Shown in pieces: positions 826-42,035 of a DNA stretch of 42,344 nt (positions within the stretch are counted from its first letter, which is position 1; each line of letters begins with the position of its first letter). Under the pieces are notes generated by a model. It ran no database searches. It saw only the letters and a program-made list of their open reading frames with translations, and had not been told where the DNA came from. The position numbers and the translations under genes are program-made. Source of the stretch: a virus (taxonomy: Duplodnaviria > Caudoviricetes); IMG/VR virus record IMGVR_UViG_3300050150_000027, positions 1-42,344 of that record. One strand, written 5' to 3'.

Positions 826-850
826 TACGGGGGCCTTTAAAGCCCCCGTA
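826..850 (+). terminator. Stem-loop after the capsid gene with CTTTAAA in the loop
   Basis: TACGGGGGC-ctttaaa-GCCCCCGTA, a perfect 9-bp stem. No U-tract, so it may be a stabilising or processing hairpin. Confidence 0.5.
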
Positions 851-879
851 CCCTCCCACTCCAAGTTGGAGTAAATACT

Positions 880-1389
880 ATGGTTTGGAAGACTGGGGCT
901 AACTCGCCCATGGGGATTTCCGCCCCGACCGGTACCGCTGACACGGTGCAGGTCAATGCGGTTGGCACTATCGCCAAGTTCTACGATGACGCGTTCGGCG
1001 AAGGTGAATTTATCTACCTCCCCGGCGTGGCTTCGTGCGCTGCTGGCGATGCCGTTCTGTACGACTTGTTGCCGTCCGGCCCGACTACGCTCCGCCACAG
1101 CAACGCCACCGGCTCGAATACTGGCCGTCCTGTCGCTTTCGCGCTCGGTGCCACCGTTGCGGGGCAGTGGGGCTGGTTCCAGGTTAGCGGTGTCGCCATT
1201 GTTAGCGCCGTTGCCGGTACTGTCGCCGGTGTTATGATGGCATCGGCTACCGCCGGTTCGGTCGGCAATACCGCCGATGCGGGCGACCAAATCCTGAACG
1301 CACGTATCTCGTCGGCTGTCGGTACTCCGGCTGCGAACAAGTCGTACGCGACGATCAATCGTCCGTTCGTGCAGGGACAGATTACCTAA
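880..1389 (+). CDS. Putative capsid decoration / minor head protein
   Basis: 169 aa, Ala/Gly-rich and beta-type, directly after the capsid gene, with a GGAG RBS. Confidence 0.55.
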   Translation: MVWKTGANSPMGISAPTGTADTVQVNAVGTIAKFYDDAFGEGEFIYLPGVASCAAGDAVLYDLLPSGPTTLRHSNATGSNTGRPVAFALGATVAGQWGWFQVSGVAIVSAVAGTVAGVMMASATAGSVGNTADAGDQILNARISSAVGTPAANKSYATINRPFVQGQIT

Positions 1390-1408
1390 TCCCTCCCGTG
1401 GGTAAACT

Positions 1409-1440
1409 TGGCGGGGTGCTTCGGTGCCCCGCCATTCTTT
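1409..1440 (+). terminator. Intrinsic terminator
   Basis: TGGCGGGGTGC-TTCG-GTGCCCCGCCA followed by TTCTTT. Confidence 0.75.
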
Positions 1441-14756: not shown

Positions 14757-15203
14757 TTAGCCGGATGCTGGGCTGGCCTCGTGGCGGCAAATCGGGCAGT
14801 CGTGGCGGGGCGATAGGAGGACATGGGGATGGCGCGTACAGTGCAGCGATACTGCCCCCGTAGTCACTTCCTGCATTACCGGGGAACCCCATAAGGGGAC
14901 AGCCCGTGGTACGGGTTCGGTCGCCTTCTCGAAAGATGACGGGTCAGTACTGATCGGAAACACGCCTTGGCGGGGGTCGTTGTTGATGCAGCTTTCTTCG
15001 CCACGTTTCGCGTACGCCGCAATATCCGCCCATGTTTCCGAGTTATCGGTATCGCCGGTCACTAGACCAGCCACTTTAAAGAGTATCTGACTTAGGGCTG
15101 TGGAATGCTGAGGGCGCAGGCTTGAATACCCGTAGTTTGCCAAAAGGTCCATAAGCCCGCAGTGCAGATTGGCGTGGGCGTTGAAGTCTCCGTACTTGCT
15201 CAT
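14757..15203 (-). CDS. Hypothetical protein, DUF6378-like
   Basis: Likely start MSKYGDF at 15203; KVAGLVTGD...WADIAAYA motif. Confidence 0.55.
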   Translation of the reverse strand: MSKYGDFNAHANLHCGLMDLLANYGYSSLRPQHSTALSQILFKVAGLVTGDTDNSETWADIAAYAKRGEESCINNDPRQGVFPISTDPSSFEKATEPVPRAVPLWGSPVMQEVTTGAVSLHCTRHPHVLLSPRHDCPICRHEASPASG

Positions 15204-15487
15204 TTTCCGTCCTTTCGTAGTATACCGCGCTTGACTTCGCCTAGGGCAAGTTGCGCCCAAGTCCACCAAAGCGCCAGCATAAGCTGCGACTGCGAAGCGT
15301 GGTTCAAGCCGTAGTCGCATCTGGCCTGATCCAATCCGAAAGTGTTTGCGGGGTACCCAAGGGTCTTTAAAGCCTGCATTGCCTTTGTGCGTACTGCCAT
15401 ACGCTCAATGTCGTAGGACCGCCACGTAGCATCCTCGGCAATAGACCCGTCTAGGTACTTCGGTACGAACTCCCTAAATGGTATCAT
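15200..15487 (-). CDS. Hypothetical protein
   Basis: Start MIPFREF at 15487; 4-nt overlaps with both neighbours. Confidence 0.6.
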   Translation of the reverse strand: MIPFREFVPKYLDGSIAEDATWRSYDIERMAVRTKAMQALKTLGYPANTFGLDQARCDYGLNHASQSQLMLALWWTWAQLALGEVKRGILRKDGK

Positions 15488-15642
15488 TTGTCGAGGCAGT
15501 ACTTGTACTCGCCGCACAAATCCGTCTGCATGACAAACGGTCGCAAGCCTTCTAGGTTAGGAGGGTACCTGCGGCAGATACCCGCTCCTGAATCTGTGGT
15601 AGCTTTAAACCACTTGCATGTATCGCAGTTCATCTTGCTCAT
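15484..15642 (-). CDS. Small Cys-rich phage protein
   Basis: CDTCKWF...GICRRYPP...CGEY; ATGA-coupled to the helicase gene. Confidence 0.65.
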   Translation of the reverse strand: MSKMNCDTCKWFKATTDSGAGICRRYPPNLEGLRPFVMQTDLCGEYKYCLDK

Positions 15643-17324
15643 AGTACGATTCCCCCAAAAGAGCAACGAGACGGGAGTTCGGGTACCGAGTTAATATCAA
15701 GCCCCATTTGTCGCTGGTACGTGAGCGTAGCGTTGCGGAAACGCGTCATTTCGTCGCCACGCTCGAACCACGAATTATACCGCACTTCGTCGGTAGTATG
15801 GCGAGCCATGATAACATGAATACTTACAACCTCTTTTTGCCCTGAGCGCGCAAGTCGCGCGTTAGTTTGCAGGTACCGTTCAAGGCTCCATATAGTACTA
15901 AACCATATGAGGTTATGGCCGCCGAACTGTAGATTAAGACCGTGGCCAGCACTTTGAGGATGGATAAGTAGGTTAGGGATACCCCCAGCATTCCATCTAT
16001 CAATAGTTCTCTCAGCATTCTTGCCTTTGAGTACCGCATACGGAATGCCTTCCTTTTTAAAGCGCGCCACGATCCTTTCTAGGTCGTGGTTGAAATGGTA
16101 CGGTATCAAGCAGTGTTGGTCTAGCGCGTCGATTACTTCGACTAGCTTATCTATCTTGGCCGTGTGTACTTCTTTCCAGTCTTTCTGGCCGCGTTCGTCG
16201 GTCGTGTATATCGCCCCGTTGCATAGCTGCCAGCACATATTAGACTTGGCCCCGCCGTTCACCGCTATGACGGGGTTTTCGAGCATTTCAAATACGGCTT
16301 CTTTTTCGAGTTGCCGATAATGCGGTTTGATTTCCTCGGGCAAGTCTATGTAGTGTTTAAAGGGTGGCAGTTGCTTCGGAAGTACCCCGTAGTCCTCTGC
16401 GTTCAGTTCGACTGTAATGTCGGCGATAAGTTCGTGGATACGCTCTTGACCGCCCTGCCGTACTTGCCATTCGGGACGGGCCTCGTCCTCTTCCTTATTA
16501 AGATCGTACTTGTGTACGTGCGCTGCTACCTGCTGCGTCTTGTGGAAAAAGCGGCCTTGGAACGTATCAAAGGACTGGTGCAGCCTAGCGCCGTGATCCA
16601 GTAGGTAGAACGGGGACCACAAGTTTTGCAGGCCAGAAGGCGAGGGAGTTCCCGTAAGTACGGCGGTACGCTTGAAGCGCGGCGGCGGCGTTATGACGTT
16701 TAGCCCCGTCAACGGATCTTTTAAAGGCTTCCCATCCGGCCCCTTGAGGACCACACGAGTACCGTAGTTCGACAGTACCCGGAACCGCTTCGTACGGTTG
16801 TCCTTGAACATGGAACTTTCGTCTATTATCAATGCATCGTAGTGTGCGAGCCAGTCGGCCCGTATATGCTTTTGCAGCCATGGCAGCAACTCCGGGTTTA
16901 TCAGGTGGATATGCGCGGGGCGAGCGACGGCGAACGCGCGTTCCTTCTCGTTACCGCGTATTAGCTGGAACGTGAGGTGGCGCGTATGCGACCAGTCGCG
17001 GGCCTCTTGACGCCATACGGTTTCACATACCTTGATTGGCGCAACGACGAGTACCGGCTTCGTGCATATACCCCACTTGAACCACTCCGCTGCGGCGGTA
17101 AGCCCCACGATGGTTTTCCCCAAGCCGGGGTCAATATGCACCGCCGTACCGTCTACTTCTGGACCCTCTTTAAAGCCCGTGGCGGGGTTGCGGCGCAGTT
17201 CGCCGGTAAACAGCTTATGGGCGGCACGTAGCTGATACCCCCGCATACGCGCACCGTCCTTTATACGGTACTTGTCCTCTGTATCGGGCTGTACCTGCAT
17301 TGGCGCGAATAGATCAGGCAGCAT
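15639..17324 (-). CDS. SNF2-family helicase
   Basis: GLGKT Walker A, IIDES, LTGTP, HGLNLQ and QTNARLARSGQ motifs. Confidence 0.92.
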   Translation of the reverse strand: MLPDLFAPMQVQPDTEDKYRIKDGARMRGYQLRAAHKLFTGELRRNPATGFKEGPEVDGTAVHIDPGLGKTIVGLTAAAEWFKWGICTKPVLVVAPIKVCETVWRQEARDWSHTRHLTFQLIRGNEKERAFAVARPAHIHLINPELLPWLQKHIRADWLAHYDALIIDESSMFKDNRTKRFRVLSNYGTRVVLKGPDGKPLKDPLTGLNVITPPPRFKRTAVLTGTPSPSGLQNLWSPFYLLDHGARLHQSFDTFQGRFFHKTQQVAAHVHKYDLNKEEDEARPEWQVRQGGQERIHELIADITVELNAEDYGVLPKQLPPFKHYIDLPEEIKPHYRQLEKEAVFEMLENPVIAVNGGAKSNMCWQLCNGAIYTTDERGQKDWKEVHTAKIDKLVEVIDALDQHCLIPYHFNHDLERIVARFKKEGIPYAVLKGKNAERTIDRWNAGGIPNLLIHPQSAGHGLNLQFGGHNLIWFSTIWSLERYLQTNARLARSGQKEVVSIHVIMARHTTDEVRYNSWFERGDEMTRFRNATLTYQRQMGLDINSVPELPSRCSFGGIVL

Positions 17325-17484
17325 TCATTTTATCCCAATCGAACAGGCCCGCCGCTTGAGCAGCGTGTACGGCGGCTTCGTAGCTGCTGTATGGCGTTTG
17401 GGGGAGTATCTCGTTACCGCTCTTGTCGTAGACCCGTACAAACCATTGCAGACAGCTCATGCGCACTCTATACTTGAAGGGCAT
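17314..17484 (-). CDS. Small hypothetical protein
   Basis: Fills the gap between VRR-NUC and the helicase; start at 17484 or 17460. Confidence 0.45.
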   Translation of the reverse strand: MPFKYRVRMSCLQWFVRVYDKSGNEILPQTPYSSYEAAVHAAQAAGLFDWDKMNAA

Positions 17485-17785
17485 TGTCTTTGGCCTCCGT
17501 ATTAAGCTGGTATACGATGGCCTCGACGCGCTCGTAGCTGTCACACACGTCCAGTACCGTGCAGCCGCGCGCCCGCCATTCGTCGCGTACGAGTTCCTGT
17601 AACCGCCGTTCGGTCTTACCGGGGCGCTTGCACTCGACAAAGTACGGCGTACCGGGTGCCCACTTCGGGCGTAGTATCATACGATCGGGTACGCCTGCGT
17701 AGCCGGGGCAAGTCAACTTGATGACTTTAAAGCCGTACTTTTCAAGCCGGTCTTTGAGGCGTTCCTCTACGGGTTTTTCCCTCAT
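17468..17785 (-). CDS. VRR-NUC domain nuclease
   Basis: MREKPVE...GVPDR...FVECKRPG...LQ motif. Confidence 0.88.
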   Translation of the reverse strand: MREKPVEERLKDRLEKYGFKVIKLTCPGYAGVPDRMILRPKWAPGTPYFVECKRPGKTERRLQELVRDEWRARGCTVLDVCDSYERVEAIVYQLNTEAKDNALQV

Positions 17786-18201
17786 ACCCGCCCCTTCTCG
17801 ACTTCGCGGTTGCCGACGATGATCGAGTACCGCCCAGCTACGCCCTTGGCGTACTTGTTGATTTCGTCACGGGCGCGCTTCACAAGCCGCATTTGGCCTT
17901 CGTGCGCGAGGTCTGCGTACCTGTTCGCGTCGATTTCGATGGTGAATACAGCAGCGACTTTAAAGGCGCTCTCGGAGTTTGCCTTGCTGCTTACCGCCCA
18001 TACGCGGTGGCGGCTATCTTTGCCACACATAGGGAACACGGGATCGGGTGTGACGAATACCGAAATACCGCTGCAACCGGCTGCTTTCGCCGCCATGGAG
18101 TAGCTGGTTTTCAAGTACTCTTGATCCGTACCCCGCCCGTACCATTCGTCCTCTGAGAGTTCGACTACGTACGCTTCGCCCTGTTTAAATGCCTTGCCCA
18201 T
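17782..18201 (-). CDS. Hypothetical protein
   Basis: 139 aa, GGAGG RBS, coupled to VRR-NUC. Confidence 0.7.
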   Translation of the reverse strand: MGKAFKQGEAYVVELSEDEWYGRGTDQEYLKTSYSMAAKAAGCSGISVFVTPDPVFPMCGKDSRHRVWAVSSKANSESAFKVAAVFTIEIDANRYADLAHEGQMRLVKRARDEINKYAKGVAGRYSIIVGNREVEKGRV

Positions 18202-18218
18202 TGTCTTGCCTCCAACGG

Positions 18219-23288: not shown

Positions 23289-23300
23289 GCCCCGTACTCC

Positions 23301-23720: not shown

Positions 23721-23744
23721 TTAAAGTACTCCCGTACTTGAGGT

Positions 23745-24158: not shown

Positions 24159-24238
24159 TTAAAGTACTCCCGTTTTGTTAGACCCTATGGTATTGGCGGT
24201 ACTGGTAGGGTCAGGGAACCAGTACCGCCAATCTGGTG

Positions 24239-24697
24239 TCAGATAATCGACGAGTTCTGCGGAACACCGCCGCCGGCGAACTGCGCCAGTACGCGCTGGA
24301 AGCGCTGGTAGAGTTCGGTGAACTGGTGCGGCTGCGTCTCGGGAAGGGCATTGATACCCATTGCGCGCATTTCGGTACCGAGTGCGCTCTTGACAGCTTC
24401 GTTCGCAACGTGCGGCTGGATCAGGGCGGTAATCATATCGCCCGTGACGTTCTGCGCCTGCGATGCTTGGTTCGCCGCCTGCTGTGCTGCGGCCTGTGCT
24501 GCGGCCTGAGCGGCAGCGTTCGGATCGACGCCGAGCGACAGCCCGCCGCCGAGCGACAGCCCGCCGCCGAGGCCGGTAGCGGTTGCGCCGGTCTGTGTGC
24601 TTGCCGCGCGGAGGGCCGCGATTTCGTTCTTGAGGGCCGCGATTTCGGCGGTGTGCTGCTGTACGGCAGCGTTCATCTGTTCGAGGATACCGGTCAT
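24239..24697 (-). CDS. Hypothetical protein (coiled coil plus A/Q-rich linker)
   Basis: 152 aa, starts immediately after the primase stop; contains a short tandem duplication encoding GGGLSL. Confidence 0.7.
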   Translation of the reverse strand: MTGILEQMNAAVQQHTAEIAALKNEIAALRAASTQTGATATGLGGGLSLGGGLSLGVDPNAAAQAAAQAAAQQAANQASQAQNVTGDMITALIQPHVANEAVKSALGTEMRAMGINALPETQPHQFTELYQRFQRVLAQFAGGGVPQNSSII

Positions 24698-26914
24698 TTA
24701 AAGCTCCTGTGACATTTTCGGAAGGCTGTACCCGAACTTGTTCTGGATCACTTGTCCTTCGTACTTCATATGTGTAAGGACTTGTGAGATACGCGTACGG
24801 GTAACACTAGGAAGCAGGGACGAAAATTCCTGCTGGTTTATGAACGGGTGGCGCACTAGCAGTTCCAAAATCGCTGTTTGTACGTCTTGACGCACGGCAG
24901 GCAACCAGCCGCCCCGTTCTGCATCAAATGCCATATCAATGTCGAAGTCTCTAGGTACGTCGCGGCCTGATATAAGTAGCTTGCGTACTTCGTTCTCTGC
25001 CTGCACACCTCGCTTGCCTTTGATAGATATTACGCCATCGACAGCGCCGGTAATACCGGTAGTACCTGAAACGTCCTCCATGAAATCGCCGCTTTCGGCG
25101 TTCGCTAGTCCTTTCTTCTCGTGGTGTACCACAATTGTACACACTTCGCGTTCCGACGCGAACCGAGTAATCGGCATCATTTGGTCGTAGTCGCGCTGGT
25201 ATACGTCCCGGTTGTTCGACTGTTCGCGGAAGTGCGCGTACGTGTCAATAATAAAAAGCTTGGTTTTGGGGTACTGGTCGTGGAAGCGTTTTAAAGCGTC
25301 TACCCCCTGTTCGCCTCTCGGGAAAGCGGAGTACGCTCTAGCGGCCTCTTCGGGGTTTGACACGAACGCCTTACCAGTAGTCGGCGAAATATCTACGCCA
25401 CCTGTCCAGTACCTGAAACCAGATAGATCGGGCGGGTTGAGGTCGAAGGTTTGGAGCAGCTTGATACGGCTACGCAAACGGCGTTCGTTGTCCTCTAGGC
25501 CCAAAAACAATACGTCCCCTTCCTCGCACTGCCAGTCTAGGAATTTGCGCCCCCCGACCACCGACAACGCCAATTGAAGCGCTAGGAATGTTTTACGCAT
25601 TTTTGGGCGGGCTGCAAGCAAAAAGTTCCCTGTCGGCAGGACATTTGGGATTACCCATTTCAACTCTTTAAATACGCGCCGTTGCAGATCAGCCATCGAC
25701 GGTACGCGAGTGAAATCGTATTGCTTGGTCGGTCCCGTACTTCCCGGTAGGTCCATAAGCCCTAGGTTAGACGGCGAACCTGCGCCGACCAGTGGGCTGA
25801 ACTCGGTAAGCGGCGCCTTTAAAAGGTCCGATAGTCTGAGGGCTGCGGCGTCCTTGTCGCCATCTGTGCAGAACTCCGCTACTAGTCCGATGGGCATACG
25901 GCGACCTTCGGTCTTGTCGCCTTGGTCCGCAAAGCCAAAATACTTAATACCCAAGGGCCACGGGTGTATTGCCAAGTCTTCTTCGTAGGTTAGACCTAGA
26001 TCGGCACTGGCAACACGGTACCCCTGTTTGTACTCGCGAGCAGTAGGGAATAGTATTGGAACCCATTCTTTAAGCCGGTTCATGGCTTGTTCGTTTAGGC
26101 CCCGGTACTTCTTCTCGTCGTCGGGGTACTCTTGTTTGTGCTTGGCTACGCCTGCTTGCGTATTAGTTTGGCCGGGTCCGAGTAAGTGGGAATATCGTTG
26201 GTTGAACTGGCATATCGAAGCCAACTCCACTCGACTGCAAATATCGGTAGGCGCTTGGTATACTGTGGCCTTGCGGTGAGGCCGGGTAGGGATATTGTCC
26301 CCCTTGCGTGCCCACGTACCGGGCAAGCGCCAGATGCGCGCGGCATTGAAGTTAACAACGTCGATGCTGCACCCGTCGGCTTTAAAGCGAGCGTGTAGAC
26401 ACTTGAGGAACTTAGCAATCTCGTCGCGTACGAACTCATTGTTAGGCTCCTTGATCGCGTACATGAGGTGCCAGCCATTGCCGCTGGAATTTATGACCGG
26501 GCGCGGCCAGCCTTCCAGTTCGAGCATATTGGCTACGGAGTTGGCTACTTTAAAGGCGTTCTCCCGCTCAGCGTCGGTCGAACTGATACCCGCCGGTCGA
26601 TCTGGGTCAACGTCCACGAGTAGCCATCGCCGCTCTAGTACGTCGCCGTCTAGCGTGGTTAGCTGCGCCCATGAACTAATGCGGTTGTACGAACGCGCTG
26701 CTAGATCAGGAACTACGGGATTCGGGGTAAAGTATATCCCCTGATACGAGTCCTGTAAAGCGCATATAGCCGTAGCGGCGTGCGCCGGGTGGTCAAAGTA
26801 CCCCGCGTCAATCCGTCGCTTGCTGGAATGGATAAGCCTAACCTCGAATACTTCACCCGGCTGCACGAATGCAGATAGGGAGCGTTCTAGTTCGCTGTAA
26901 TCATGTTGATGCAC
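24698..26914 (-). CDS. AEP-type primase fused to a RecA-like (AAA_25) helicase
   Basis: LVDVD, SSGNGWH and RIWRLPGT primase motifs; AARPKMRKT, FIIDT and VVHHEKK helicase motifs; likely GTG start at 26914. Confidence 0.85.
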   Translation of the reverse strand: MHQHDYSELERSLSAFVQPGEVFEVRLIHSSKRRIDAGYFDHPAHAATAICALQDSYQGIYFTPNPVVPDLAARSYNRISSWAQLTTLDGDVLERRWLLVDVDPDRPAGISSTDAERENAFKVANSVANMLELEGWPRPVINSSGNGWHLMYAIKEPNNEFVRDEIAKFLKCLHARFKADGCSIDVVNFNAARIWRLPGTWARKGDNIPTRPHRKATVYQAPTDICSRVELASICQFNQRYSHLLGPGQTNTQAGVAKHKQEYPDDEKKYRGLNEQAMNRLKEWVPILFPTAREYKQGYRVASADLGLTYEEDLAIHPWPLGIKYFGFADQGDKTEGRRMPIGLVAEFCTDGDKDAAALRLSDLLKAPLTEFSPLVGAGSPSNLGLMDLPGSTGPTKQYDFTRVPSMADLQRRVFKELKWVIPNVLPTGNFLLAARPKMRKTFLALQLALSVVGGRKFLDWQCEEGDVLFLGLEDNERRLRSRIKLLQTFDLNPPDLSGFRYWTGGVDISPTTGKAFVSNPEEAARAYSAFPRGEQGVDALKRFHDQYPKTKLFIIDTYAHFREQSNNRDVYQRDYDQMMPITRFASEREVCTIVVHHEKKGLANAESGDFMEDVSGTTGITGAVDGVISIKGKRGVQAENEVRKLLISGRDVPRDFDIDMAFDAERGGWLPAVRQDVQTAILELLVRHPFINQQEFSSLLPSVTRTRISQVLTHMKYEGQVIQNKFGYSLPKMSQEL

Positions 26915-26975
26915 CCGACCCCCGCCACACCTTAAAAACCCTAGAGCGTGCCAACGCCCTCTCTTGCCGCGAACT

Positions 26976-27004
26976 CGGTAGACCCCGAAAGGCTCCCGTG
27001 TCAA
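26976..27004 (-). promoter_or_regulatory. Candidate sigma70 promoter for the replication operon
   Basis: TTGACA at 27004-26999 just downstream of a terminator; weak -10. Confidence 0.45.
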
Positions 27005-27039
27005 GCCCTCCGTCTGGCCCGCCTGCGGGGCGCTCAGGC

Positions 27040-27081
27040 GCGAAAAAGGCCGCTAGGGCGGGTGTCCCTAGCGGCCTCTCG
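27040..27081 (-). terminator. Intrinsic terminator ending the early arm
   Basis: 12-bp stem AGGCCGCTAGGG / CCCTAGCGGCCT with a T-run on the minus strand. Confidence 0.75.
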
Positions 27082-27158
27082 TTTGGCCCTTGGCGGGGCC
27101 GGTGTGTCGCTGGCAAGAGCAACAGGCAAGCGCCCATTGCCAGCAAACACCCCCGCCG

Positions 27159-27464
27159 TCAAGATAGCCGCGCGACTTCAAACGAACCATCGGGCTGTAC
27201 AATGCAAGTCCAGCCGTACTCGTACAAGTATATCCGTTCGTCGCGTAGTGTAGTCACCGCAACGGGGAGCATCGGCGGATCGCCAGCGTACCCGAGCGCA
27301 AGGCTTTCGGCATCGCGGGTGAAGCCCTTTAAAGCGTCCCAGCCGCCGCAGTACTTTTCTGCAATCTGTTCGGCAGCGGGGCGGGGATCAATACTTGATA
27401 GGAACGACGGAAGAATGCCAAGTACTTCGGGCGATATGCCGCTATGCGCAAGGAACCAAATCAT
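27159..27464 (-). CDS. Hypothetical protein
   Basis: 101 aa, GGAGTAC RBS. Confidence 0.7.
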   Translation of the reverse strand: MIWFLAHSGISPEVLGILPSFLSSIDPRPAAEQIAEKYCGGWDALKGFTRDAESLALGYAGDPPMLPVAVTTLRDERIYLYEYGWTCIVQPDGSFEVARLS

Positions 27465-27476
27465 GCGACGTACTCC

Positions 27477-27743
27477 TTACTTGAGGCCGAGTTTGCACAT
27501 GACTTTAAAGGCTTCGCGCGCTTGCGAAGCCAAATGCTTCTGCGCATCAGCGATCAATTCTTCAAGGCGTACCTCACTATCGCCGCAGCCCGACGCCAGC
27601 ATATCTGCGCCGACGCTGACGCATAGCTTCCCTGCTTCGTGTACGTCCAGCAGCTTACGGAAGTCCGAGGCGGCGTTTCCAATGACCAGCTTGAAAATAG
27701 TCGCAGTGCCGGGGCTAATGTCTTTGGGAGGGTAGATTGCCAT
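27477..27743 (-). CDS. Hypothetical protein
   Basis: 88 aa, GGAGTAC RBS. Confidence 0.7.
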   Translation of the reverse strand: MAIYPPKDISPGTATIFKLVIGNAASDFRKLLDVHEAGKLCVSVGADMLASGCGDSEVRLEELIADAQKHLASQAREAFKVMCKLGLK

Positions 27744-27795
27744 ATTGCGTACTCCTTGCCAGATACTTTAAAGTTTCCGTACGCGCCAGATATGA

Positions 27796-27830
27796 GAAAG
27801 GCCGGGGTAGTACGGGTACCCCGGCCTTTC
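27796..27830 (-). terminator. Terminator-like hairpin
   Basis: GAAAGGCCGGGGTA / TACCCCGGCCTTTC, a perfect 14-bp stem after the 230-aa gene. Confidence 0.7.
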
Positions 27831-27854
27831 CGCCCTCAGTGCGACCCGAGGGGC

Positions 27855-28547
27855 TTACAGGATCGACGGCAGCGCCGACTGCGCCTTGGTAGTCGAGATA
27901 CCGAGCATCTGCTTGGCGGGTGCCAAGTACCGGGTTTCGAGCATCTTGCCGAGCGCGGTGCGCAGTTCAGCACCCGAACCCGGCACGGCAGCTTCGGCGG
28001 CTTCGACCTTGGCGGCAATGGTGGCGTTCAGGTATGCGATGCCATCCGCGCCAACATCGGCCTTGGCCTTGAGGAACGTGTACTTCGGATCAGTGGCCGA
28101 CTTCGACTTGTGGACTTCGCGGACCACAGTATCAGTGACCAGCTTGGTCAGCGGATCGACCGTAACGCGCGCCTTGGTACCGTCGCCCTGCTTGCGTACG
28201 TTGCCCGAGGTGAGATCGGCGATGGCACGGCTGAGTACGTCCTCAAGGTCGGGAGCAGCCGGCAGCGGCTTTTCCGGCTTGGCGACGACGGATTGCAGCG
28301 GGTCGGCAGCAGTGGCCTTGTTGTACGCGTCCCACGCAAGGACGGTTTCATCCTTGGCGTAGCGCTGCGTGGCCGAGTTCAGCCGGTTGGCGGCGTAGCC
28401 GCGCACGGCGTTCTTGAGGAAGTCGAGACGGACGTTTGCCGGGATGGCTGCGCAGTCGATGGAACGCGCGCCGGGGAGGTTCGGAAATTCAGTAACCAGC
28501 ACGGTGTCCGCGACTGGGGCGGCGACGGCTTCGGGGGTATCGGTCAT
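27855..28547 (-). CDS. Hypothetical Ala/Lys-rich protein, probably highly expressed
   Basis: 230 aa, capsid-like codon bias, with its own promoter and terminator. Confidence 0.8.
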   Translation of the reverse strand: MTDTPEAVAAPVADTVLVTEFPNLPGARSIDCAAIPANVRLDFLKNAVRGYAANRLNSATQRYAKDETVLAWDAYNKATAADPLQSVVAKPEKPLPAAPDLEDVLSRAIADLTSGNVRKQGDGTKARVTVDPLTKLVTDTVVREVHKSKSATDPKYTFLKAKADVGADGIAYLNATIAAKVEAAEAAVPGSGAELRTALGKMLETRYLAPAKQMLGISTTKAQSALPSIL

Positions 28548-28598
28548 TGGGTAGGCTCCGCAGTTGGGGGTTGTTTCGTTGTCGCTTTCGACTGGTCC

Positions 28599-28626
28599 AG
28601 AATACAGCCTGTCGGGTACGTGTCAA
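28599..28626 (-). promoter_or_regulatory. sigma70-type promoter
   Basis: TTGACA-N16-TATTCT, about 50 nt upstream of the ATG at 28547. Confidence 0.65.
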
Positions 28627-28649
28627 CAGGAAAAAGATACGATGCGAAA

Positions 28650-29063
28650 TTATTCTTCCGGTACTTTAAAGCTAAGCGGCAGTACGTCTGTCCAGTCAGA
28701 TGCAGACTTGGCCATATGGATGGTTGTCTGTTTGGTAGCGCCATCGTAGGCCATGCGCATAGTGCAGTTATCGTCAAGCGGCGCGTCAATGTCCATACCC
28801 GCCGCCTTGAGCGCCTGTAGCACCTGCGAGAGGGATCGAAAGGCGCTGGCCACGAAGTCGCCGAACGAGCAGTTAGCGCGGTTGAACGTAAGGGTGAACG
28901 CGCCCGAAAGCGGGTAGTACGTGATTTGGACCATTGACGAACGCGAATTGAAATTGACCGTTGGCGCGGTACGCGTCCCCGCGATAGCCGCGCGCCAGTA
29001 GTTGCGTTCAGCGGTTGCGTTGAACTCTTGGGCTATCTGGTCGGCTTGCATCATTGGCGTCAT
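28650..29063 (-). CDS. Hypothetical protein
   Basis: 137 aa, AAGGTG RBS. Confidence 0.6.
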   Translation of the reverse strand: MTPMMQADQIAQEFNATAERNYWRAAIAGTRTAPTVNFNSRSSMVQITYYPLSGAFTLTFNRANCSFGDFVASAFRSLSQVLQALKAAGMDIDAPLDDNCTMRMAYDGATKQTTIHMAKSASDWTDVLPLSFKVPEE

Positions 29064-29072
29064 ACATCACCT

Positions 29073-29300
29073 TTAAAGTATGTCGGGGAGTTTGGGCGCT
29101 AGGCCAGAGCGTTGTATTTGGCGATCATAGAAAAGCTTCTCGGCCCATGACCACGAACGCCAGCAGCCGGGAGGCGCGTTAGCAAACCCCCCGGCACTGT
29201 TACCTATCGCGCGTAGCTGCGTATACGGCGCTAGGCAGTCCTCGTTACGCGCACCTAGTACGCACTTTAAAGGACTGCACCGTACGCATGGGCTAAGCAT
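29073..29300 (-). CDS. Hypothetical protein
   Basis: 75 aa in the tightly packed early operon. Confidence 0.45.
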   Translation of the reverse strand: MLSPCVRCSPLKCVLGARNEDCLAPYTQLRAIGNSAGGFANAPPGCWRSWSWAEKLFYDRQIQRSGLAPKLPDIL

Positions 29301-29523
29301 CTCGCCCCTGCGGCACGGTGAGGGACGCGATATGCGCGGTTAACCCCTTGGCGTGGTCTTGCCAGACTGTGCGAGGCTCTAACGTCACACTACGGGCGAG
29401 CAGCCATACCCGTACGTTTGCGTACCCGAGTAGCGCGAATTTCTCCGCTTCCTCGTACGCTTGCGCGGCGTCGGTATGCTCTAATACCCGTGTGTCCATG
29501 TCGTCGTAAGTTATCAAAAACAT
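29293..29523 (-). CDS. Hypothetical protein
   Basis: Start MFLITYDD at 29523 with a GGAG RBS. Confidence 0.55.
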   Translation of the reverse strand: MFLITYDDMDTRVLEHTDAAQAYEEAEKFALLGYANVRVWLLARSVTLEPRTVWQDHAKGLTAHIASLTVPQGRDA

Positions 29524-29524
29524 G

Positions 29525-29839
29525 TCAGTTGCTCCCTTGGCAGACTTCTGGCGGTTCCTCGTTGCGATCCCATATACGGGCGCAGGTCGAGCATTTGTAC
29601 TGATCGGCCCCCCATTGGACCGGGTGGTGCAAGCTATCTTTAAAGCTTGCAGCTTGCCTGTCCGCATGTTCCTGTAGCATCGGGGCAAGTCTTGCGTTGC
29701 GTAGGCGTTCGTTCTCCCTGTCCAATAGGCGCGAAAGGCGCTCGTGCGCACGGAACATAGTATCGACTTTGTGCGGCTCGATACCTTGCGCTATCAGGCT
29801 GGCGCGTACGTTGGCGCGTGCTGTATCTTGCCTATTCAT
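29525..29839 (-). CDS. Hypothetical protein with C-terminal CxxC
   Basis: Start MNRQDTAR at 29839; YKCSTC...C. Confidence 0.55.
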   Translation of the reverse strand: MNRQDTARANVRASLIAQGIEPHKVDTMFRAHERLSRLLDRENERLRNARLAPMLQEHADRQAASFKDSLHHPVQWGADQYKCSTCARIWDRNEEPPEVCQGSN

Positions 29840-29996
29840 GGTCGATCCTGTCCCTATACGGATTAAGGCGCTTGCGCTCCCCTTCCAGTTCGGCCCACTG
29901 CGCACGGTACCGCGCCCACGTACCGAAAATGACAGCGCCAGCGCCTACGCCTAGCAGCGTGACAGCGACTAGGGCGAATATCTTTAAAGCAATCAT
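29832..29996 (-). CDS. Small single-pass membrane protein
   Basis: MIALKIFALVAVTLLGVGAGAVIFGTW hydrophobic segment. Confidence 0.55.
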   Translation of the reverse strand: MIALKIFALVAVTLLGVGAGAVIFGTWARYRAQWAELEGERKRLNPYRDRIDHE

Positions 29997-30199
29997 CACT
30001 TTTGCCCCCTTTGTGCAAAGCGGTACCCCGCCAATACCCAATCGCATTTGGCCATAAACCGCAGCGTGGCCAAATGCGTATCCGGCGCGCGTTGGTAATA
30101 GGCGTCACCCATGACACTGAAAAGCATTAGCCTTTCACTGCCATTGATCCCGCGCGCCCTGCAACATTCCTCGTTTAGTACTTCGCTAAGTGTTTTCAT
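29996..30199 (-). CDS. Hypothetical protein
   Basis: 67 aa, GGAGTAC RBS, ATGA coupling. Confidence 0.55.
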   Translation of the reverse strand: MKTLSEVLNEECCRARGINGSERLMLFSVMGDAYYQRAPDTHLATLRFMAKCDWVLAGYRFAQRGQK

Positions 30200-31032
30200 T
30201 GCGCGTACTCCATAGCCTCTAGGGCGGTTTCAATATGCCGCGCGATATGGTCTAACGCGGCTTGCGGCGTAGCGGCGTTAGTGTTGGCGTCATTGATCCC
30301 GTTTAGCGCCACGGTACCGATAGGCGCGTTAATCACGTCGCTTGCCTTGACCGTCTCAGGGTATCCGTAAACGCTGCATTCGCGCGCCTTGCAGCGCTCT
30401 ATAAGAGCAAAGCAGATGCGACGGAACATTGCAGGGTGTCCGATGGCGAACGACAGGTTAGCAAGGTCTAGGGGCTGCTCAGCGCCTTTGACGCGCCACG
30501 AAAAGCACACCCGCTTGCCGCTTATGGATTGTACGCAAGCGGCTATCACTTCGCATTGTATCCCGTCGCTTTCCAGTTGGTTAACGTATTGGGCGATACC
30601 TAGGCCATAGTTGGCGACGTTTGCCGCGCGTTGTGAGCAATCCACGCTGATATTGACGACAAGCGTTAGTACCTTGCCTGAGCCATTGTCGGCGCACGGT
30701 TCGTGGCGGATCATACTATCTGGCGCACCTGCGCAGAACCGTGCAACGTGCGGGCGGTGTCCGTAGAAGTCGGTGCGTTCATCGGGCGAAGGCGTAAGGG
30801 GGGCGAAAGCCTTTAAAGCGGCTTGCGCGCGTTGCGCCCCCTCGTTCCACCCGTTGCGTGCCATGGTCCACGCTTTGCCGTACCCTACGCCCAAATCCCA
30901 CGAATTGCCGTAGTTGGCACTAGCGCTAGACTTCGCGCGCCACGTTGCCGGTGTGTTCTCGATCCACCGCGCCAGTTCGGCGAGAGTGTTAAAAAAGTAC
31001 TGCTCAGTTTTGCCTTTAAAGCGTTCCTGCAT
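30196..31032 (-). CDS. vWA-like partner of the AAA+ ATPase
   Basis: 278 aa directly downstream of the ATPase; LTLVVNISVDCS strand, VKGAEQPLD and HPAMFRR motifs. Confidence 0.55.
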   Translation of the reverse strand: MQERFKGKTEQYFFNTLAELARWIENTPATWRAKSSASANYGNSWDLGVGYGKAWTMARNGWNEGAQRAQAALKAFAPLTPSPDERTDFYGHRPHVARFCAGAPDSMIRHEPCADNGSGKVLTLVVNISVDCSQRAANVANYGLGIAQYVNQLESDGIQCEVIAACVQSISGKRVCFSWRVKGAEQPLDLANLSFAIGHPAMFRRICFALIERCKARECSVYGYPETVKASDVINAPIGTVALNGINDANTNAATPQAALDHIARHIETALEAMEYAQ

Positions 31033-31046
31033 TGTCTGTACTCCTG

Positions 31047-32351
31047 TTAAGCAAATAGGCTAGCGGCGTCGCGTAGTTGGTTACAAGTGTCGGTATCAAG
31101 CCCCTTGAACATAGTGGCTTCTTCTACCTGCTCCCAAGTATCGCCCATTGCCAGCCCCTTTGCGCCGTCTAACGTGGCGCGTGGTGTGATAAGCAAGTCT
31201 GAAAGCCCCCGTTCGGTAGCGGCCTTGCGAATTGACTGTACGTGCGCACACCAGCCCTTGTCGGGGGCAATCGCCATTTCAAGCGCTTCGTCGTACCCAA
31301 ATTCGATGAAATAGAACCGATTAACGCTGGCGGCGTCTAGTTTGTTGCGCCCTTGGTACTGCCGAGTAGCGCCCGATAGCTTAGTATTACCCGCGCCAAT
31401 GCATTTAAAGTTTTCGTGCATTGGTACCGCCTTATCGGGGAAAGGGCATACTTTGTTTGCCAGCGCCATATTCATTGCGACGATAGCGCCAGCGCTCGAA
31501 CCATCCATTTCGTCGAATAGAAAAACGCCACCGTTCTCGTACGCTTCCCTAAAGGGTGTGCGGATCGTCTCCCCGCGTGCGTCCCGGAACCCGAGCAACA
31601 GGTACTCGGATTCTACCTTGGCCACGCAATAGAACGGAAGCCCGAGCGCTTCGGCGCACTGCATTCCCGCAGTGCTTTTGCCGCTCCCCGCAGGTCCGTG
31701 CAGGTATACATGCAAGCCGTGTTGCAGCGCCTTAACGATACGCGGCAACGCGTAATGCACTATCCCGAACGGTTGAGGCGCTGGCATATCCGGCTTTTGA
31801 ATATGCAGTACCGTCGGCATCATATCGGCGAGTGCAGCGCTTATCGCTTCCATGTTGGATTTGCGCAGCACTTCGCAGGTTTGTTGCAGTACTTCGCGCG
31901 AGTATTCGGCTTCCCTATCGAAACGCTCATTCAGTAGCGCGCGAAGCGTTTTTGTCTCAGTGTCCACCGATTGCTGCATGGTATCGGCCCACTGGTCAAA
32001 CACTTGGCGCGATACGGTATTGGCGGACTGTTCAGCAATCATACCCTTTAAAGCGGCTTTTATTGCTTCCATTGACGGGCCTACGTTGTTTTCGGCAACG
32101 CGCCCTTGCCCGTAGCGCGCGTTAATCTTATCCGCGATAGCACGCGACGAAGGCTCAGACTTGCGCGCCACTGAGTACAGATTGACCAGTTCGCGCGACG
32201 TTGCCGCACTGGCCACGCCAGCCGCCACGCCAGCGCTAACGGCTAGCAATTCGAGCGCGCTGCGCACGGGACCAGATACCGTATCGGCTGGATCAATAAA
32301 CCGGCGACCGTGCGCGTTCTCTACTTGTGCAAGGTAATCTGACATAAGCAT
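31047..32351 (-). CDS. MoxR/CobS-like AAA+ ATPase (AAA_5)
   Basis: GPAGSGKS, FLFDEMD, GAGN and LDAASVNRF motifs; likely start 32351 with an AAGGGG RBS. Confidence 0.85.
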   Translation of the reverse strand: MLMSDYLAQVENAHGRRFIDPADTVSGPVRSALELLAVSAGVAAGVASAATSRELVNLYSVARKSEPSSRAIADKINARYGQGRVAENNVGPSMEAIKAALKGMIAEQSANTVSRQVFDQWADTMQQSVDTETKTLRALLNERFDREAEYSREVLQQTCEVLRKSNMEAISAALADMMPTVLHIQKPDMPAPQPFGIVHYALPRIVKALQHGLHVYLHGPAGSGKSTAGMQCAEALGLPFYCVAKVESEYLLLGFRDARGETIRTPFREAYENGGVFLFDEMDGSSAGAIVAMNMALANKVCPFPDKAVPMHENFKCIGAGNTKLSGATRQYQGRNKLDAASVNRFYFIEFGYDEALEMAIAPDKGWCAHVQSIRKAATERGLSDLLITPRATLDGAKGLAMGDTWEQVEEATMFKGLDTDTCNQLRDAASLFA

Positions 32352-32373
32352 GGTTTGTCCCCTTGGTGTCATA

Positions 32374-32429
32374 CAGTGTTTAAGTTAGGGCAGGCTTTAA
32401 AGCGTTTGCCTGCCCTATCCAAAAAACTG
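32374..32429 (-). repeat. Intergenic long-hairpin element, copy A
   Basis: Near-duplicate of 33258-33311; TAGGGCAGG / CCTGCCCTA stem with CTTTAAAG in the loop. Confidence 0.85.
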
Positions 32430-32618
32430 CTAAATCGGTTCGATCCTAAACTTATCGTTCGGCCAGCCCTTACGCGCGGCTTCCAGATACGCTTGCGCCT
32501 TATCGCGGGGGGCGGAAAACTGCCCTATGTCCCCGTACGTGCCGAAATTGAAGGCTTCCCACTGTCGACGAAAGCCCGAGTACCTAAGCACTCGGTATTG
32601 CCTGTTGTCCTGCCCCAT
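32430..32618 (-). CDS. Hypothetical protein
   Basis: 62 aa, TAATG-coupled to the SprT-like gene. Confidence 0.6.
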   Translation of the reverse strand: MGQDNRQYRVLRYSGFRRQWEAFNFGTYGDIGQFSAPRDKAQAYLEAARKGWPNDKFRIEPI

Positions 32619-33232
32619 TACTCGCCCTCCCCGTCGCCATCGTCGGTCACAAGTACCCCGTCACAATCCGGCACGGGGCAGTTCAGGTGCGTATGCGGCG
32701 CAATATGCTTAGCGGTCACACGCGCCAGAAAGCCGCACACGGGGCATTCCACCTTAAGCAGCGCTGTCTTTTGCTTTTTGCGCGAAGTACTCAAGCCGCC
32801 CTTTAAAGCCCCGTATGGCATCGGCCCTAGGCTTTGGATGATTGGCAACGCCCAATCGTACCAAGTCTGTCCGGCCACGGTGGCGGTCATTTTGCCCTCT
32901 AGGCCAAGTGCCGTCGCAATACGCTTGAATGCAGGGCCGTGGCCAGATTGCAGCCCCGCCGCAGCGTGTGCCAATTCATGCGTGAGAACGTCGCAAATGC
33001 GCGCTTCGCCCTCTAGCGTAGGCTTAATGAAAATTTCAAAATGGCCATCGTCGCTGGCAGTATCCGACCAGCATTCGCCGATGCGCGAACCCTTGAGGCC
33101 GCGCGAAGTGAAGCCCACGGCAACGCGCACGTTCATGGGAAGGGGCGCGTTAATTTCGTCGAAACGATCCCGCGTGGCGTCAATGAACGCGTTAAGCCAA
33201 TCCTCGCGCGTATTGTGCAGATATTCAGACAT
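32618..33232 (-). CDS. SprT-like zinc metalloprotease with C-terminal Zn ribbon
   Basis: THELAH...GHGPAF and CPVC...CPVPDC motifs. Confidence 0.8.
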   Translation of the reverse strand: MSEYLHNTREDWLNAFIDATRDRFDEINAPLPMNVRVAVGFTSRGLKGSRIGECWSDTASDDGHFEIFIKPTLEGEARICDVLTHELAHAAAGLQSGHGPAFKRIATALGLEGKMTATVAGQTWYDWALPIIQSLGPMPYGALKGGLSTSRKKQKTALLKVECPVCGFLARVTAKHIAPHTHLNCPVPDCDGVLVTDDGDGEGE

Positions 33233-33257
33233 AGTGCATTCCTTTCGGTTAGTGTCG

Positions 33258-33311
33258 CAGTGTTTAAATTAGGGCAGGCTTTAAAGCGTTCCTGCCCTAT
33301 CTTAAAAACTG
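33258..33311 (-). repeat. Intergenic long-hairpin element, copy B
   Basis: About 21-bp imperfect stem with CTTTAAAG in the loop; near-duplicate of 32374-32429. Confidence 0.85.
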
Positions 33312-33509
33312 TTAGCAATACGTGGCGAAGTCGTTCAACCGCGCAACAGATCGCCCGGCGCGCGCATTAAGCGCGATTTGTATCTGTATGTCCCATCCGG
33401 TTACGTCCCGGTTTGCGTTGTACGCTTCCGCGCGTTCGCTATCCCGCTTTGCAATGCGCAACAGGATACGAAACAGGATACGTGCGACAAAGTATTCAAT
33501 AATAGGCAT
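33312..33509 (-). CDS. Hypothetical basic protein (first gene of the early operon)
   Basis: Start MPIIEYF at 33509. Confidence 0.5.
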   Translation of the reverse strand: MPIIEYFVARILFRILLRIAKRDSERAEAYNANRDVTGWDIQIQIALNARAGRSVARLNDFATYC

Positions 33510-33520
33510 ATGCTTTCCCC

Positions 33521-33572
33521 GCTTAGTTTCCATTGCGCGCGGGGCTTCCCCCGTATGCAATGGGAACTAAGC
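33521..33572 (-). other. Long leader hairpin (RNase III site-like)
   Basis: GCTTAGTTTCCATTGC / GCAATGGGAACTAAGC arms plus an inner GGGG / CCCC stem. Confidence 0.6.
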
Positions 33573-33589
33573 AGTTCCCCGGTTCACTA

Positions 33590-33601
33590 TGTCAAAGAAC
33601 G
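33590..33601 (-). promoter_or_regulatory. boxA-like antitermination element
   Basis: CGTTCTTTGACA on the minus strand, against the rrn boxA TGCTCTTTAACA; lies between promoter and first gene. Confidence 0.55.
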
Positions 33602-33655
33602 TGGCCGTTGCGGTGGCCGTGCCGGTTAGAGTGTGTTTCTGGTTGCGTCCCCCTC

Positions 33656-33683
33656 TCTTTATAGCACGCGTGCGACCGGTCAA
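33656..33683 (-). promoter_or_regulatory. Candidate major early promoter
   Basis: TTGACCG-N11-GCTATAAA, resembling alphaproteobacterial housekeeping promoters. Confidence 0.55.
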
Positions 33684-33950
33684 GTACGTTAACCGATTTA
33701 AAGCGGCAAAAACGGAATTAAATGCACCCGTTCCTGTTCCCCGTACCCCGCCGAAACGCGCCAGTATGAGAACAAAAGCGGTTATGCCCTAAAATCGCCT
33801 CAGGGGCACCTTAGAGCGCGTTCGTACTCTCAGGCTAGGGCAGTATGGCAAGGGGCAATCTCCGCGTTTTCACGGTTTGTTCTCCACCGATTAGTACATA
33901 GCGTTTCAATCGGTTTTTCCGATTAGTATCATATCCCGCACGCGAACGCT

Positions 33951-35050: not shown

Positions 35051-35134
35051 TCATTTCGTACATCATGTTTCGTACTTTTCATTTCGTACATCATGTTTTG
35101 TACTTTTCATTTCGTACATCATGTTTCGTACTTT
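35051..35134 (+). repeat. 3 x 28-bp tandem repeat (iteron-like)
   Basis: TCATTTCGTACATCATGTTTCGTACTTT three times, with one substitution in copy 2. Confidence 0.92.
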
Positions 35135-35280
35135 ACGGTTAGTATTTTTGTAAATTATTTCGGGAAAGTTAAGTACGGGCCTTAAAGTATATTACTTGCT
35201 GAGGCGACCACGGGCCTTGACAAACTCAGGCACAAACCCCACACACTCAGTCCCCAGCTAGCAAATAGGGAACCATTACA

Positions 35281-35981: not shown

Positions 35982-35983
35982 CT

Positions 35984-40405: not shown

Positions 40406-40433
40406 TGTTTAAAGCGGATTGAAGGGGTAGACT

Positions 40434-40895
40434 GTGGCATTCGATCTTTACGAATTTCCCGAAAGTTTCAGCGGTCGTAAGACCTATGTAACCGTTCGCG
40501 GGCATTCTAAGTCGATCCCGTGCGTCTACACGTATAAGGGTATGGACGGACGCAACTACGTTCTCCCGGAGTTCGGCGGCGATTGGAGCGGGTACGACAA
40601 CTTTTCGCACGCCGTACAGACGCCGATGATTATGCGCGATATTAGCGGGTACGCATCCCCGATTGATGGCGCGCAGATCACCAGTCGTTCGGAACACCGG
40701 GACCACTTGCGCCGCCACGAAGTAATCGAGGTTGGGAACGAGCGTATAGGGGCACCTCGTCCCGATACTGGCGTCACTAGCAGCGGCTATACGCGCGATC
40801 ATCTTCGGAAGCATATTGAAGAAGTAAAACGGATGCCTCAGGCCGCGTACGAGGAACGTGTCCAGAAGCAGAAATATGAGAGTACTGCGCCATGA
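40434..40895 (+). CDS. Conserved hypothetical protein
   Basis: YASPIDGAQITSRSEHRDHLRRHEVIEVGNE motif; lies between portal and scaffold. Confidence 0.7.
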   Translation: MAFDLYEFPESFSGRKTYVTVRGHSKSIPCVYTYKGMDGRNYVLPEFGGDWSGYDNFSHAVQTPMIMRDISGYASPIDGAQITSRSEHRDHLRRHEVIEVGNERIGAPRPDTGVTSSGYTRDHLRKHIEEVKRMPQAAYEERVQKQKYESTAP

Positions 40896-42007
40896 GTGAT
40901 GATTTCGATTTCGTTTCGGACCTGAACGACAACGGTACTGACCATAGCGATACCGTACGCGTAGCCGACGTTGATACGTCCCATGTTTCCGATACGTCGA
41001 AGATCAAAGTAGATCAGCAGCAGAAGCCGAACGCGGGCGATAAGCCCGTATCGCTGCGCGATCAGATTTCGAGTGCCCTCAAGGGTGACGCCGAGCCTAC
41101 GCCTGAGGCGCAGTCGGGCGATATGCGTGCGCGCAACCCTGATGGTACTTTTGCGGCTGCGGTCCCTGATCCGCAGCCGCAAGTACCCGCCGGTGGCCAA
41201 CCGTCCTCTTCGGTTACGCCCCCGGCGGGTATGGACCCCCAAGTATTCGCCACGCTTCCGGCGGAAACGCAAGTTCAGCTTGCGCGTACTATGGAGCATG
41301 TGAATAACCAAGCGGCTCGTTTCGCCGCATACGAACAGATCGAACACACAATAGCCCCACGCCGTCAGGCTTGGGCGCTTAATGGTATGTCGGAGGCGCA
41401 GGCCGTCAACCAGTTGTTCGCCCTTTCGGATTTCGCTACAACCGATCCGGTAGGGTTCGTCAAGTACTTTGCGCAGAATAACGGCGTTGACCTCGAAGAA
41501 GTAGTATTCGGCGAAGACCCCGGCGACCCAGAACTGAATGCTTTAAAGCAAGAGTTGGCCAACGTCAAAGGCCAACTCAACGGCTTTAACCAGCAGCAGC
41601 AACACGCGCAGCACACTCAGACAGTAGACGAAGTATCAGACTTCTTTCTGCAAAAAGACGCCGGGGGAAACCGCCTGCGTCCGTATGCAGAGGAAATCGG
41701 AAACTCTCTAACCTCGTACGTCGAACTTGCGTTGCGCGAGAACCCCAACCGCCCACGCGCAGAAATCCTACAGGATGGCTACGAACGGGCGTGCTGGGCG
41801 ATCCCTTCTGTGCGTACGAAACTTCAGCAAGTGAATAACGAAGCTGCGGAAGCAGAACGTATTCGCCTTGCGCAGGAACGTACGTCGAAGGCACGCGCTG
41901 CCGGAAGTAGCGTTTCCTCTGGCGTGCCGACCGCAGCACCCACTAATGTTGCGGACGGGAGCCTTACGTTGCGTGATACTATCCGCGCGAGCATGAACGC
42001 CGGTTGA
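40892..42007 (+). CDS. Capsid scaffolding protein
   Basis: Acidic and helical; SLRDQI...RNPDGTFA and terminal TLRDTIRASM; immediately before the capsid gene. Confidence 0.75.
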   Translation: MSDDFDFVSDLNDNGTDHSDTVRVADVDTSHVSDTSKIKVDQQQKPNAGDKPVSLRDQISSALKGDAEPTPEAQSGDMRARNPDGTFAAAVPDPQPQVPAGGQPSSSVTPPAGMDPQVFATLPAETQVQLARTMEHVNNQAARFAAYEQIEHTIAPRRQAWALNGMSEAQAVNQLFALSDFATTDPVGFVKYFAQNNGVDLEEVVFGEDPGDPELNALKQELANVKGQLNGFNQQQQHAQHTQTVDEVSDFFLQKDAGGNRLRPYAEEIGNSLTSYVELALRENPNRPRAEILQDGYERACWAIPSVRTKLQQVNNEAAEAERIRLAQERTSKARAAGSSVSSGVPTAAPTNVADGSLTLRDTIRASMNAG

Positions 42008-42035
42008 CGCAACCACTTTAAAGGAGTACGCAGCT

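Follow-up and report, generated by a model that had tools for sequence, protein, structure and literature searches.

The phage record and its palindromic word

The stretch of DNA analysed here (the window, 42,344 nt) is a whole phage record (G000), which closes into a circle via a 152-nt overlap. Its gene set is podovirus-like, with early and replication genes in a minus-strand arm and structural genes in a plus-strand arm. The capsid gene is divided by the record ends (42034-42344 and 1-818), and ORF 120-818 is its 3' part only. We found no close cultured relative, the best portal match being about 31%, and no methyltransferase among the 50 window ORFs scanned. GANTC is avoided in the window (11 copies), as it is in two Rhizobium phages, and the host is therefore likely alphaproteobacterial. 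CCWGG is also depleted (4 copies), and 24 of the 64 palindromic hexamers are missing altogether. GTAC stands about 1.8-fold above the codon-aware null in the window and in most relatives, and is lacking from the genes of relative G008. A divergent region at 35051-35144 holds tandem 14/28-bp AT-rich repeats, possibly an origin or a packaging signal.

Table 1. Features of the window discussed in the text
Feature	Position	Strand	Remarks
SprT/Spartan-like protein, 204 aa	32618..33232	-	PF10263, structure model, association; likely reader of the word
Long hairpin immediately ahead of the SprT gene, holding two sites (33263, 33280)	33258..33308	-	
Ala157 codon	32762..32764	-	Position following the word's outer base across the family
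CobS/MoxR-type AAA+ ATPase	31047..32372	-	Downstream neighbour of SprT; possible partner, insufficient for the word
DUF7192 (VWA-like reading)	30196..31032	-	Partner of the ATPase; insufficient for the word
Orphan clade protein g33	27855..28547	-	Rejected as reader; absent from other word-bearing lineages
AEP primase-helicase (AAA_25)	24698..27004	-	Rejected as reader
TTTAAA sites	835..42023	none	82 sites, 44 as CTTTAAAG

The early arm opens with the gene for a SprT/Spartan-like protein (Table 1), and in three lineages the early genes begin with it. The protein matches the PF10263 profile at 28.8 bits (cut-off, 25.6) and consists of an HExxH zinc-protease domain (HELAH in the window), a basic RKKQKT segment (KKQxT), a strand at residues 158-162 and a putative four-cysteine zinc ribbon. 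With the structure model (pLDDT 92.5), the top and one significant Foldseek match was human SPRTN (6mdw, E 5.3e-4), suggesting a related fold, at a low whole-chain TM of 0.31. Two CxxC-type pairs are conserved at the C-terminus; the Zn_ribbon_SprT cluster was reached at 0.78 only, which we regard as a lead. The hairpin upstream of the gene has a near copy at 32374-32420, with site 32396, upstream of the CobS gene. The word lies in the loop of both hairpins, which resemble RNase III sites. Autoregulation through an upstream site was considered and rejected: a site lies within 120 bp upstream of SprT in 15/32 cases, as against 17/35 for other window genes. Further along the arm, g33 belongs to a conserved orphan family (117 homologues) and has by eye its own sigma-70-like promoter; its structure model is confident and gave no clear fold match in three libraries or the Atlas.

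The palindromic word itself runs through the whole genome. The preliminary description had counted by eye about 82 TTTAAA sites, 44 of them full octamers, at about 57% GC, with all but four keeping a C or G flank. Exact counting returned the same 82 and 44 (CTTTAAAG), a GC content of 56.3%, and a C or G flank at 78/82 sites. A codon-shuffled null had also been proposed. Over 500 synonymous-codon shuffles of the 48 annotated window ORFs, TTTAAA was expected 6.1 +/- 2.3 times (maximum, 13) and was observed 60 times, a tenfold excess; for CTTTAAAG the figures were 1.3 and 34. Within genes, both usable reading frames are occupied (33 TTT-AAA and 27 xxT-TTA-AAx), in keeping with the use of more than one frame noted before. 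The capsid gene and the genes at 880-1389, 1461-2144 and 27855-28547 do lack an internal site, as had been said, and the capsid stretch has none in 7/7 genomes. A role as a promoter -10 element was rejected, as -35-like words stood upstream in 6/164 orientations, which equals background.

The sites had further been described as under-dispersed. This held for the whole genome, where the coefficient of variation (CV) of the TTTAAA gaps was 0.68 against 0.98 for random placement (reached in 0/20,000 placements), with 4 gaps below 100 bp where 14.2 were expected. It also held for the early arm (14.5-34.6 kb; CV 0.45, reached in 0/10,000 placements). It did not hold for the late stretches taken singly (p 0.15 and 0.13), nor for the strict octamer CTTTAAAG alone (CV 1.24, p 0.97). 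From 15075 to 33950 no gap exceeded 898 bp (about 900 had been stated), and the largest gap, in the late arm, measured 1849 bp (about 1850). The spacing is not periodic, and no helical phase was seen among the TTTAAA gaps. The word is real and selected.

Selection on the word and its symmetry

Selection extends to the protein level, since Phe-Lys occurs 42 times and Lys-Phe 20 times in the window, and a similar excess of about twofold was found in 6/6 genomes. Five relatives (46-60% GC) carry TTTAAA at 1.3-2.4 per kb. Sites are replaced between relatives, as the proposed check on turnover brought out: 96 of the 139 aligned site positions were private to one of six genomes. We then binned the possible synonymous sites of nine genomes by their distance to another site. 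Opportunities were used in 8/88 cases within 50 bp of another site, in 25/113 at 50-100 bp, in 105/256 at 100-200 bp and in 133/231 at 300-500 bp. The effect of distance was significant in 8/9 genomes, the exception being G002. Together with the private positions, this distance dependence indicates that selection targets the coverage of sites rather than their position. These genomes purge many palindromes, and codon use, mutation bias or the avoidance of restriction could in principle have produced the word as a neutral side effect; that reading is refuted by the codon-aware null and the distance-dependent use of sites, and the excess at the amino acid level also speaks against it.

TTTAA without the final A was no more frequent in the window than other TTAA words, and half-sites were not enriched. 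Distant relatives alter both halves together, to ATTTAAAT (G009), YATTAATR (G011) or YMTTAAKR (G008). The same holds for CATTAAAG in G006, a genome without any TTTAAA, and for TTTTAAAA in L042. Finally, asymmetric variants of the word showed no orientation relative to the coding strand (11/10 and 10/7). Because half-sites are unenriched, both halves shift jointly and asymmetric variants are unoriented, these sequence patterns indicate that the word is recognised as a whole dyad on double-stranded DNA. The earlier proposal of a signal at the level of the DNA, required at intervals of a few hundred bases and on either strand, is supported.

The consensus reaches beyond the octamer. In the window clade it reads R-N4-CTTTAAAG-N4-Y, a pyrimidine being preferred 9 bases from the dyad, and the flanks show a weak GC periodicity of 10.2-10.4 bp that extends about 55 bp to each side. 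At third codon positions this rhythm had an amplitude of 3.1% around used sites, against 0.4% around unused Phe-Lys/Leu-Lys controls, where it is absent; around other AT-rich words the rhythm was weaker (0.4-0.7%). The periodicity was not significant in the G018 group or the GTTTAAAC group described below, so that among the groups compared it is, as far as tested, a trait of the window clade only.

Association of the word with the SprT-like gene

A paired-octamer scan returned 67 loci, mostly chance matches in AT-rich DNA, and yielded G018 and L162. G018 has a P22-like head and a DUF3854/DUF5906 primase, and 38 of its 41 TTTAAA sites are CTTTAAAG. It differs from the window clade in head and primase, and its PolA and PD-(D/E)XK nuclease are of other subtypes; the two share an SNF2 helicase, a distant VRR-NUC protein and the early SprT-CobS-DUF7192 block. 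The same octamer in G018 removes the AEP primase and g33 as readers. The preliminary description had suggested priming sites for the AEP primase, a notion for which the spacing, of Okazaki-fragment scale, might be cited. Phage NrS-1 offers a precedent for such sites. Priming is nevertheless a very improbable role, as the whole dyad is needed, the word shifts symmetrically between lineages, and half-sites are unenriched. Moreover, the word does not follow the primase family: G018 pairs it with an unrelated primase, and G010 encodes a primase 57% identical to that of the window and has no word.

G010 also lacks the SprT-CobS-DUF7192 block. G007 has the word, and no SprT was found in it, but the contig breaks where the block should lie. 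This assembly gap hid the block and explains why ORF clustering saw no gene missing solely from G010. Since G010 has VRR-NUC, SNF2, terminase and g33 and yet no word, it argues against these proteins as readers. Both SNF2 and the distant VRR-NUC are common to the window clade and G018, and phage VRR-NUC proteins are described as dimeric resolvases in the available passages of one report (PMC4103454), so that a junction resolvase of this kind, the helicase, the terminase, g33 or the CobS/DUF7192 pair, which flanks SprT in three lineages, might read the word instead. We consider another phage reader improbable. A third backbone carries GTTTAAAC or GGTTAAAC, does not avoid GANTC and gave no SNF2 or VRR-NUC match in the loci examined, and g33 is unmatched in G018.

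A CobS-alignment scan of about one-sixth of the collection gave 65 loci, of which one weak non-CobS match was dropped. Among the remaining 64, an octamer with a TTAA core was enriched in 11 of the 14 loci with SprT and in 2 of the 50 without it (Fisher p 3e-8, an inflated value that overstates independence, because the loci are fragments from few clades). The three SprT-bearing misses are fragments of 7-12 kb with 2-3 copies of a related word, and three loci with G018-like genes and CobS but no SprT held 0 TTTAAA in 48 kb. CobS/DUF7192 alone was rejected as reader of the word, as 48/50 CobS-bearing, SprT-free loci lack it. The two that have it are G002 and L272. G002 is complete, with terminal repeats, and possesses CobS and DUF7192; it has no SprT, yet carries 24 octamers where 0.9 are expected. 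Its spacing signals were the weakest among the genomes compared, which fits decay; either a recent loss of SprT or another reader is possible.

Other repeated words were seen in passing. G002 (L044, L084) carries a second one, ACACTTAT/TAAGTGTA, in 18 copies. SprT-free loci with CobS have iterated palindromes of their own (GCTAGC, 39 vs 3.8 in L279; GTTAAC, 30 vs 3.2 in L272). CCTGGA(C) is strongly over-represented in L247, L248 and L226-L231 (82 vs 12 in Rhizobium phage P106B), which may be codon-driven. Two further loci, L196 and L158, are modestly enriched in CTTTAAAG (8 vs 0.7 and 9 vs 0.9; the figures also stand under L221/L222, that is, G020/G021), and no SprT match was found within these fragments of 17 kb and 40% GC.

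A SprT homologue is present in 164 of 50,697 public phage records. As a forward test, six cultured phages were picked from the 164 for host spread. Enrichment in GTTTAAAC or GTTTACAC was strong in four of them and weak in the other two. Dinoroseobacter phage R5C had 10 copies of GTTTAAAC against 0.1 expected (50 of 78 kb), Methylophilales phage Venkman 34 against 1.7, and Arthrobacter phage DrManhattan 26 copies of GTTTACAC, in either orientation, against 0.2. Phage 4A had 13 copies of one or the other word against 0.2. Enrichment was weak in Escherichia phage ep3 (4 vs 0.9) and Pseudomonas phage F_TK1718sp (2 vs 0.1). Even spacing was significant in DrManhattan (CV 0.51, p 0.0006) and in R5C (p 0.005) but did not reach significance in 4A, and in Venkman the sites were clustered in one region (CV 2.3). 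The SprT-free Arthrobacter phage BaileyBlu, which covers 57% of DrManhattan by tblastx, had 0 copies against 26, and five further cultured phages had neither SprT nor the word. As judged from the genomes compared, word and SprT gene occur together in phages that are otherwise unrelated.

These phages also bear on the idea that a host protein, either a nucleoid protein or gyrase, reads the word and that SprT merely accompanies it. G002 retains the word without SprT, and both the window clade and G018 avoid GANTC, like the Rhizobium phages. But the two GANTC-avoiding Rhizobium phages lack the word, as does BaileyBlu, whose host belongs to the same genus as that of DrManhattan. Phages of Actinobacteria, Alphaproteobacteria and Betaproteobacteria, moreover, carry words that are almost identical. 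As for gyrase, its sites, including the strong gyrase site of Mu, are described in the available passages as symmetric, with GC periodicity of 10-11 bp in flanks spanning about 120 bp (PMC6379681, PMC12324340). A flank rhythm of that period is found in the window clade, but it runs 2-3 bp off the gyrase phase, as do the AT peaks, and it was not significant in the two other groups. The gyrase motif moreover has a degenerate centre and another consensus. Its central bases (-4G/+8C, -2A/+6T) are not those of the word, which showed no preference at +8 and, in the C-type word, G and not T at +6. A host reader is thus quite unlikely.

A single residue of the SprT-like protein follows the outer base of the word. 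Residue 157 adjoins the conserved Thr156 in the basic C-terminal strand. Arg at this position goes with outer G (345/520 flanks), Asn with A (57/102), and Ala, Ser or Tyr with C (963/1218). Arg-G and Asn-A are common protein-DNA contacts. Among 204 columns, residue 157 followed the outer base best, with one misfit in 26 labelled proteins. L075, which has Ala157 and a T-flanked word, departs from the rule, and Phe or Trp occupies the position in lineages whose inner base is altered. The tree bears only about three or four independent changes at this position; the Tyr-with-C combination of G018 is placed apart from that of the window clade. Taken with the co-occurrence of gene and word, this suggests that the SprT-like protein is probably the reader of the word, its binding being predicted. 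The proposal of a lattice for a DNA-binding protein, one of several in the preliminary description, is thereby supported, and its best candidate is a gene that was not named there.

Possible functions and known systems

In the best explanation, the SprT/Spartan-like protein, made early and probably dimeric, would bind the evenly spread word and so label the DNA of the phage as its own. Half-sites would be read by the zinc ribbon and by the basic strand that follows Thr156, with residue 157 touching the outer base pair, and two copies on one dyad might bend about 100 bp of flank. One site would serve the 100-300 bp around it, new sites being favoured only far from old ones. In 251 alphaproteobacterial genomes, a tally within which the unpublished genomes G229 and G054 are counted, the octamer never rose above about 0.11 per kb (window phage, 1.0) and often numbered 0-20 copies per genome of 4-6 Mb. 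Enrichment in two host genomes relative to a control word was discarded, the control being depleted instead (140 and 126 kb sampled). Because the octamer is scarce in likely hosts, the protein would gather on phage DNA. Once docked, the protease might remove host silencers, defence proteins or trapped adducts, assisted in some phages by the neighbouring AAA+/DUF7192 pair. We put forward tentatively that such a word-docked, DNA-activated protease clears host proteins off phage DNA. A clearing role agrees with the SPRTN-like fold, with the early timing and with the short range over which a site acts; it is also the weakest step of the explanation.

HExxH is intact in 86 of 90 aligned proteins and altered in four, including those of G009, G012 and L116, which keep the word; these three genomes speak against an essential protease role and favour a reader that only binds. 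Proteolysis would be unneeded if the same reader acted as a genome-wide repressor or organiser, whether by stoperator-like silencing, in control of lysogeny or pseudolysogeny, or in DNA compaction. The flank periodicity suggests wrapping, and one of the four sites of ep3 lies 23 bp, and one of the two of F_TK1718sp 18 bp, ahead of the SprT gene. In its available passages, a preprint on Arthrobacter phages (bioRxiv 2025.05.26.655371) names the protein as a candidate for the immunity repressor and contrasts clear with turbid plaques in Liebe and Maureen. The Liebe phenotype, however, points to the protease part of the protein, and three further positions distinguish Liebe from Maureen. Repression is also at odds with the intact HExxH of most proteins, with the lack of an integrase or repressor among the 50 window ORFs scanned, and with the location of sites inside and just before genes that presumably need strong expression, such as site 42017 ahead of the capsid gene. 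We regard the repressor or organiser as rather unlikely.

The clearing reading has a wider form, possible if on balance doubtful: a widespread family of Spartan-type phage proteases would have turned sequence-specific, each phage tiling its genome with an 8-bp palindrome of its own to which one residue of the enzyme is matched. The DNA-activated protease would then scan phage DNA alone and degrade host proteins that bind to it, silence it, restrict it or become crosslinked to it. If true, such a DNA-addressed protease would be programmable and would represent a new principle of anti-defence; we found no precedent for a sequence-addressed Spartan-like protease. If the protein is a plain repressor, the finding shrinks to a new form of multi-operator system in phages. 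Genome-wide palindrome lattices of phages have been without named readers, and the present one is linked to a family of proteins. The one-residue specificity rule and the cultured phages with harmless hosts make the question of the reader directly testable. A literature search, beyond the reach of which lay most subscription papers, found no paper linking SprT to a cognate palindrome.

Among known systems, the 17-bp dyad repeats of cluster O mycobacteriophages are similar in that at least 30 unoriented sites lie genome-wide, in genes and between them, with a reader thought to be dimeric and not identified (Cresawn 2015, PMC4351075); they are a longer, different word, and the available passages make no link to SprT. 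HIP1 of cyanobacteria, as presented in the passages available, is a GC-rich 8-bp palindrome of host chromosomes with a periodicity of 10-90 kb (PMC5861425). The window word shares with HIP1 the strong over-representation of an 8-bp palindrome kept inside genes by selection, but HIP1 is a GCGATCGC-type word of a cellular chromosome, whereas CTTTAAAG is phage-private and tied to one phage gene. No comparable density of CTTTAAAG was found in the 251 alphaproteobacterial genomes searched. The stoperators of cluster A mycobacteriophages are asymmetric, oriented with transcription and bound by an HTH repressor. They too are many sites for one phage protein, lying inside genes, but the window word is a dyad whose variants divide 11/10 and 10/7 by coding strand. 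Membership in the HIP1, stoperator, gyrase or primase classes fails on the tested features. The ZapT site, considered as a further comparison, was unsupported in the one paper examined.

SPRTN and Wss1 read DNA structure rather than sequence. SPRTN is a DNA-dependent protease according to the available passages of one report (PMC5127644). In SPRTN and Wss1 an HExxH zinc protease precedes a small DNA domain that binds zinc, and the window protein has this layout with a putative zinc ribbon; SPRTN and Wss1 clear DNA-protein crosslinks, whereas here a specific palindrome co-varies with the protein. A further likeness is in cluster AZ Arthrobacter phages, for which the available passages of the preprint (bioRxiv 2025.05.26.655371) describe a SprT-like protease with a predicted DNA-binding domain and a predicted role in lysogeny; its main text names no cognate word (0 matches for TAAAC or GTTTA). 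Those phages differ in being temperate; their protease belongs to the same family as the window protein (42% identity), and DrManhattan carries a GTTTACAC lattice.
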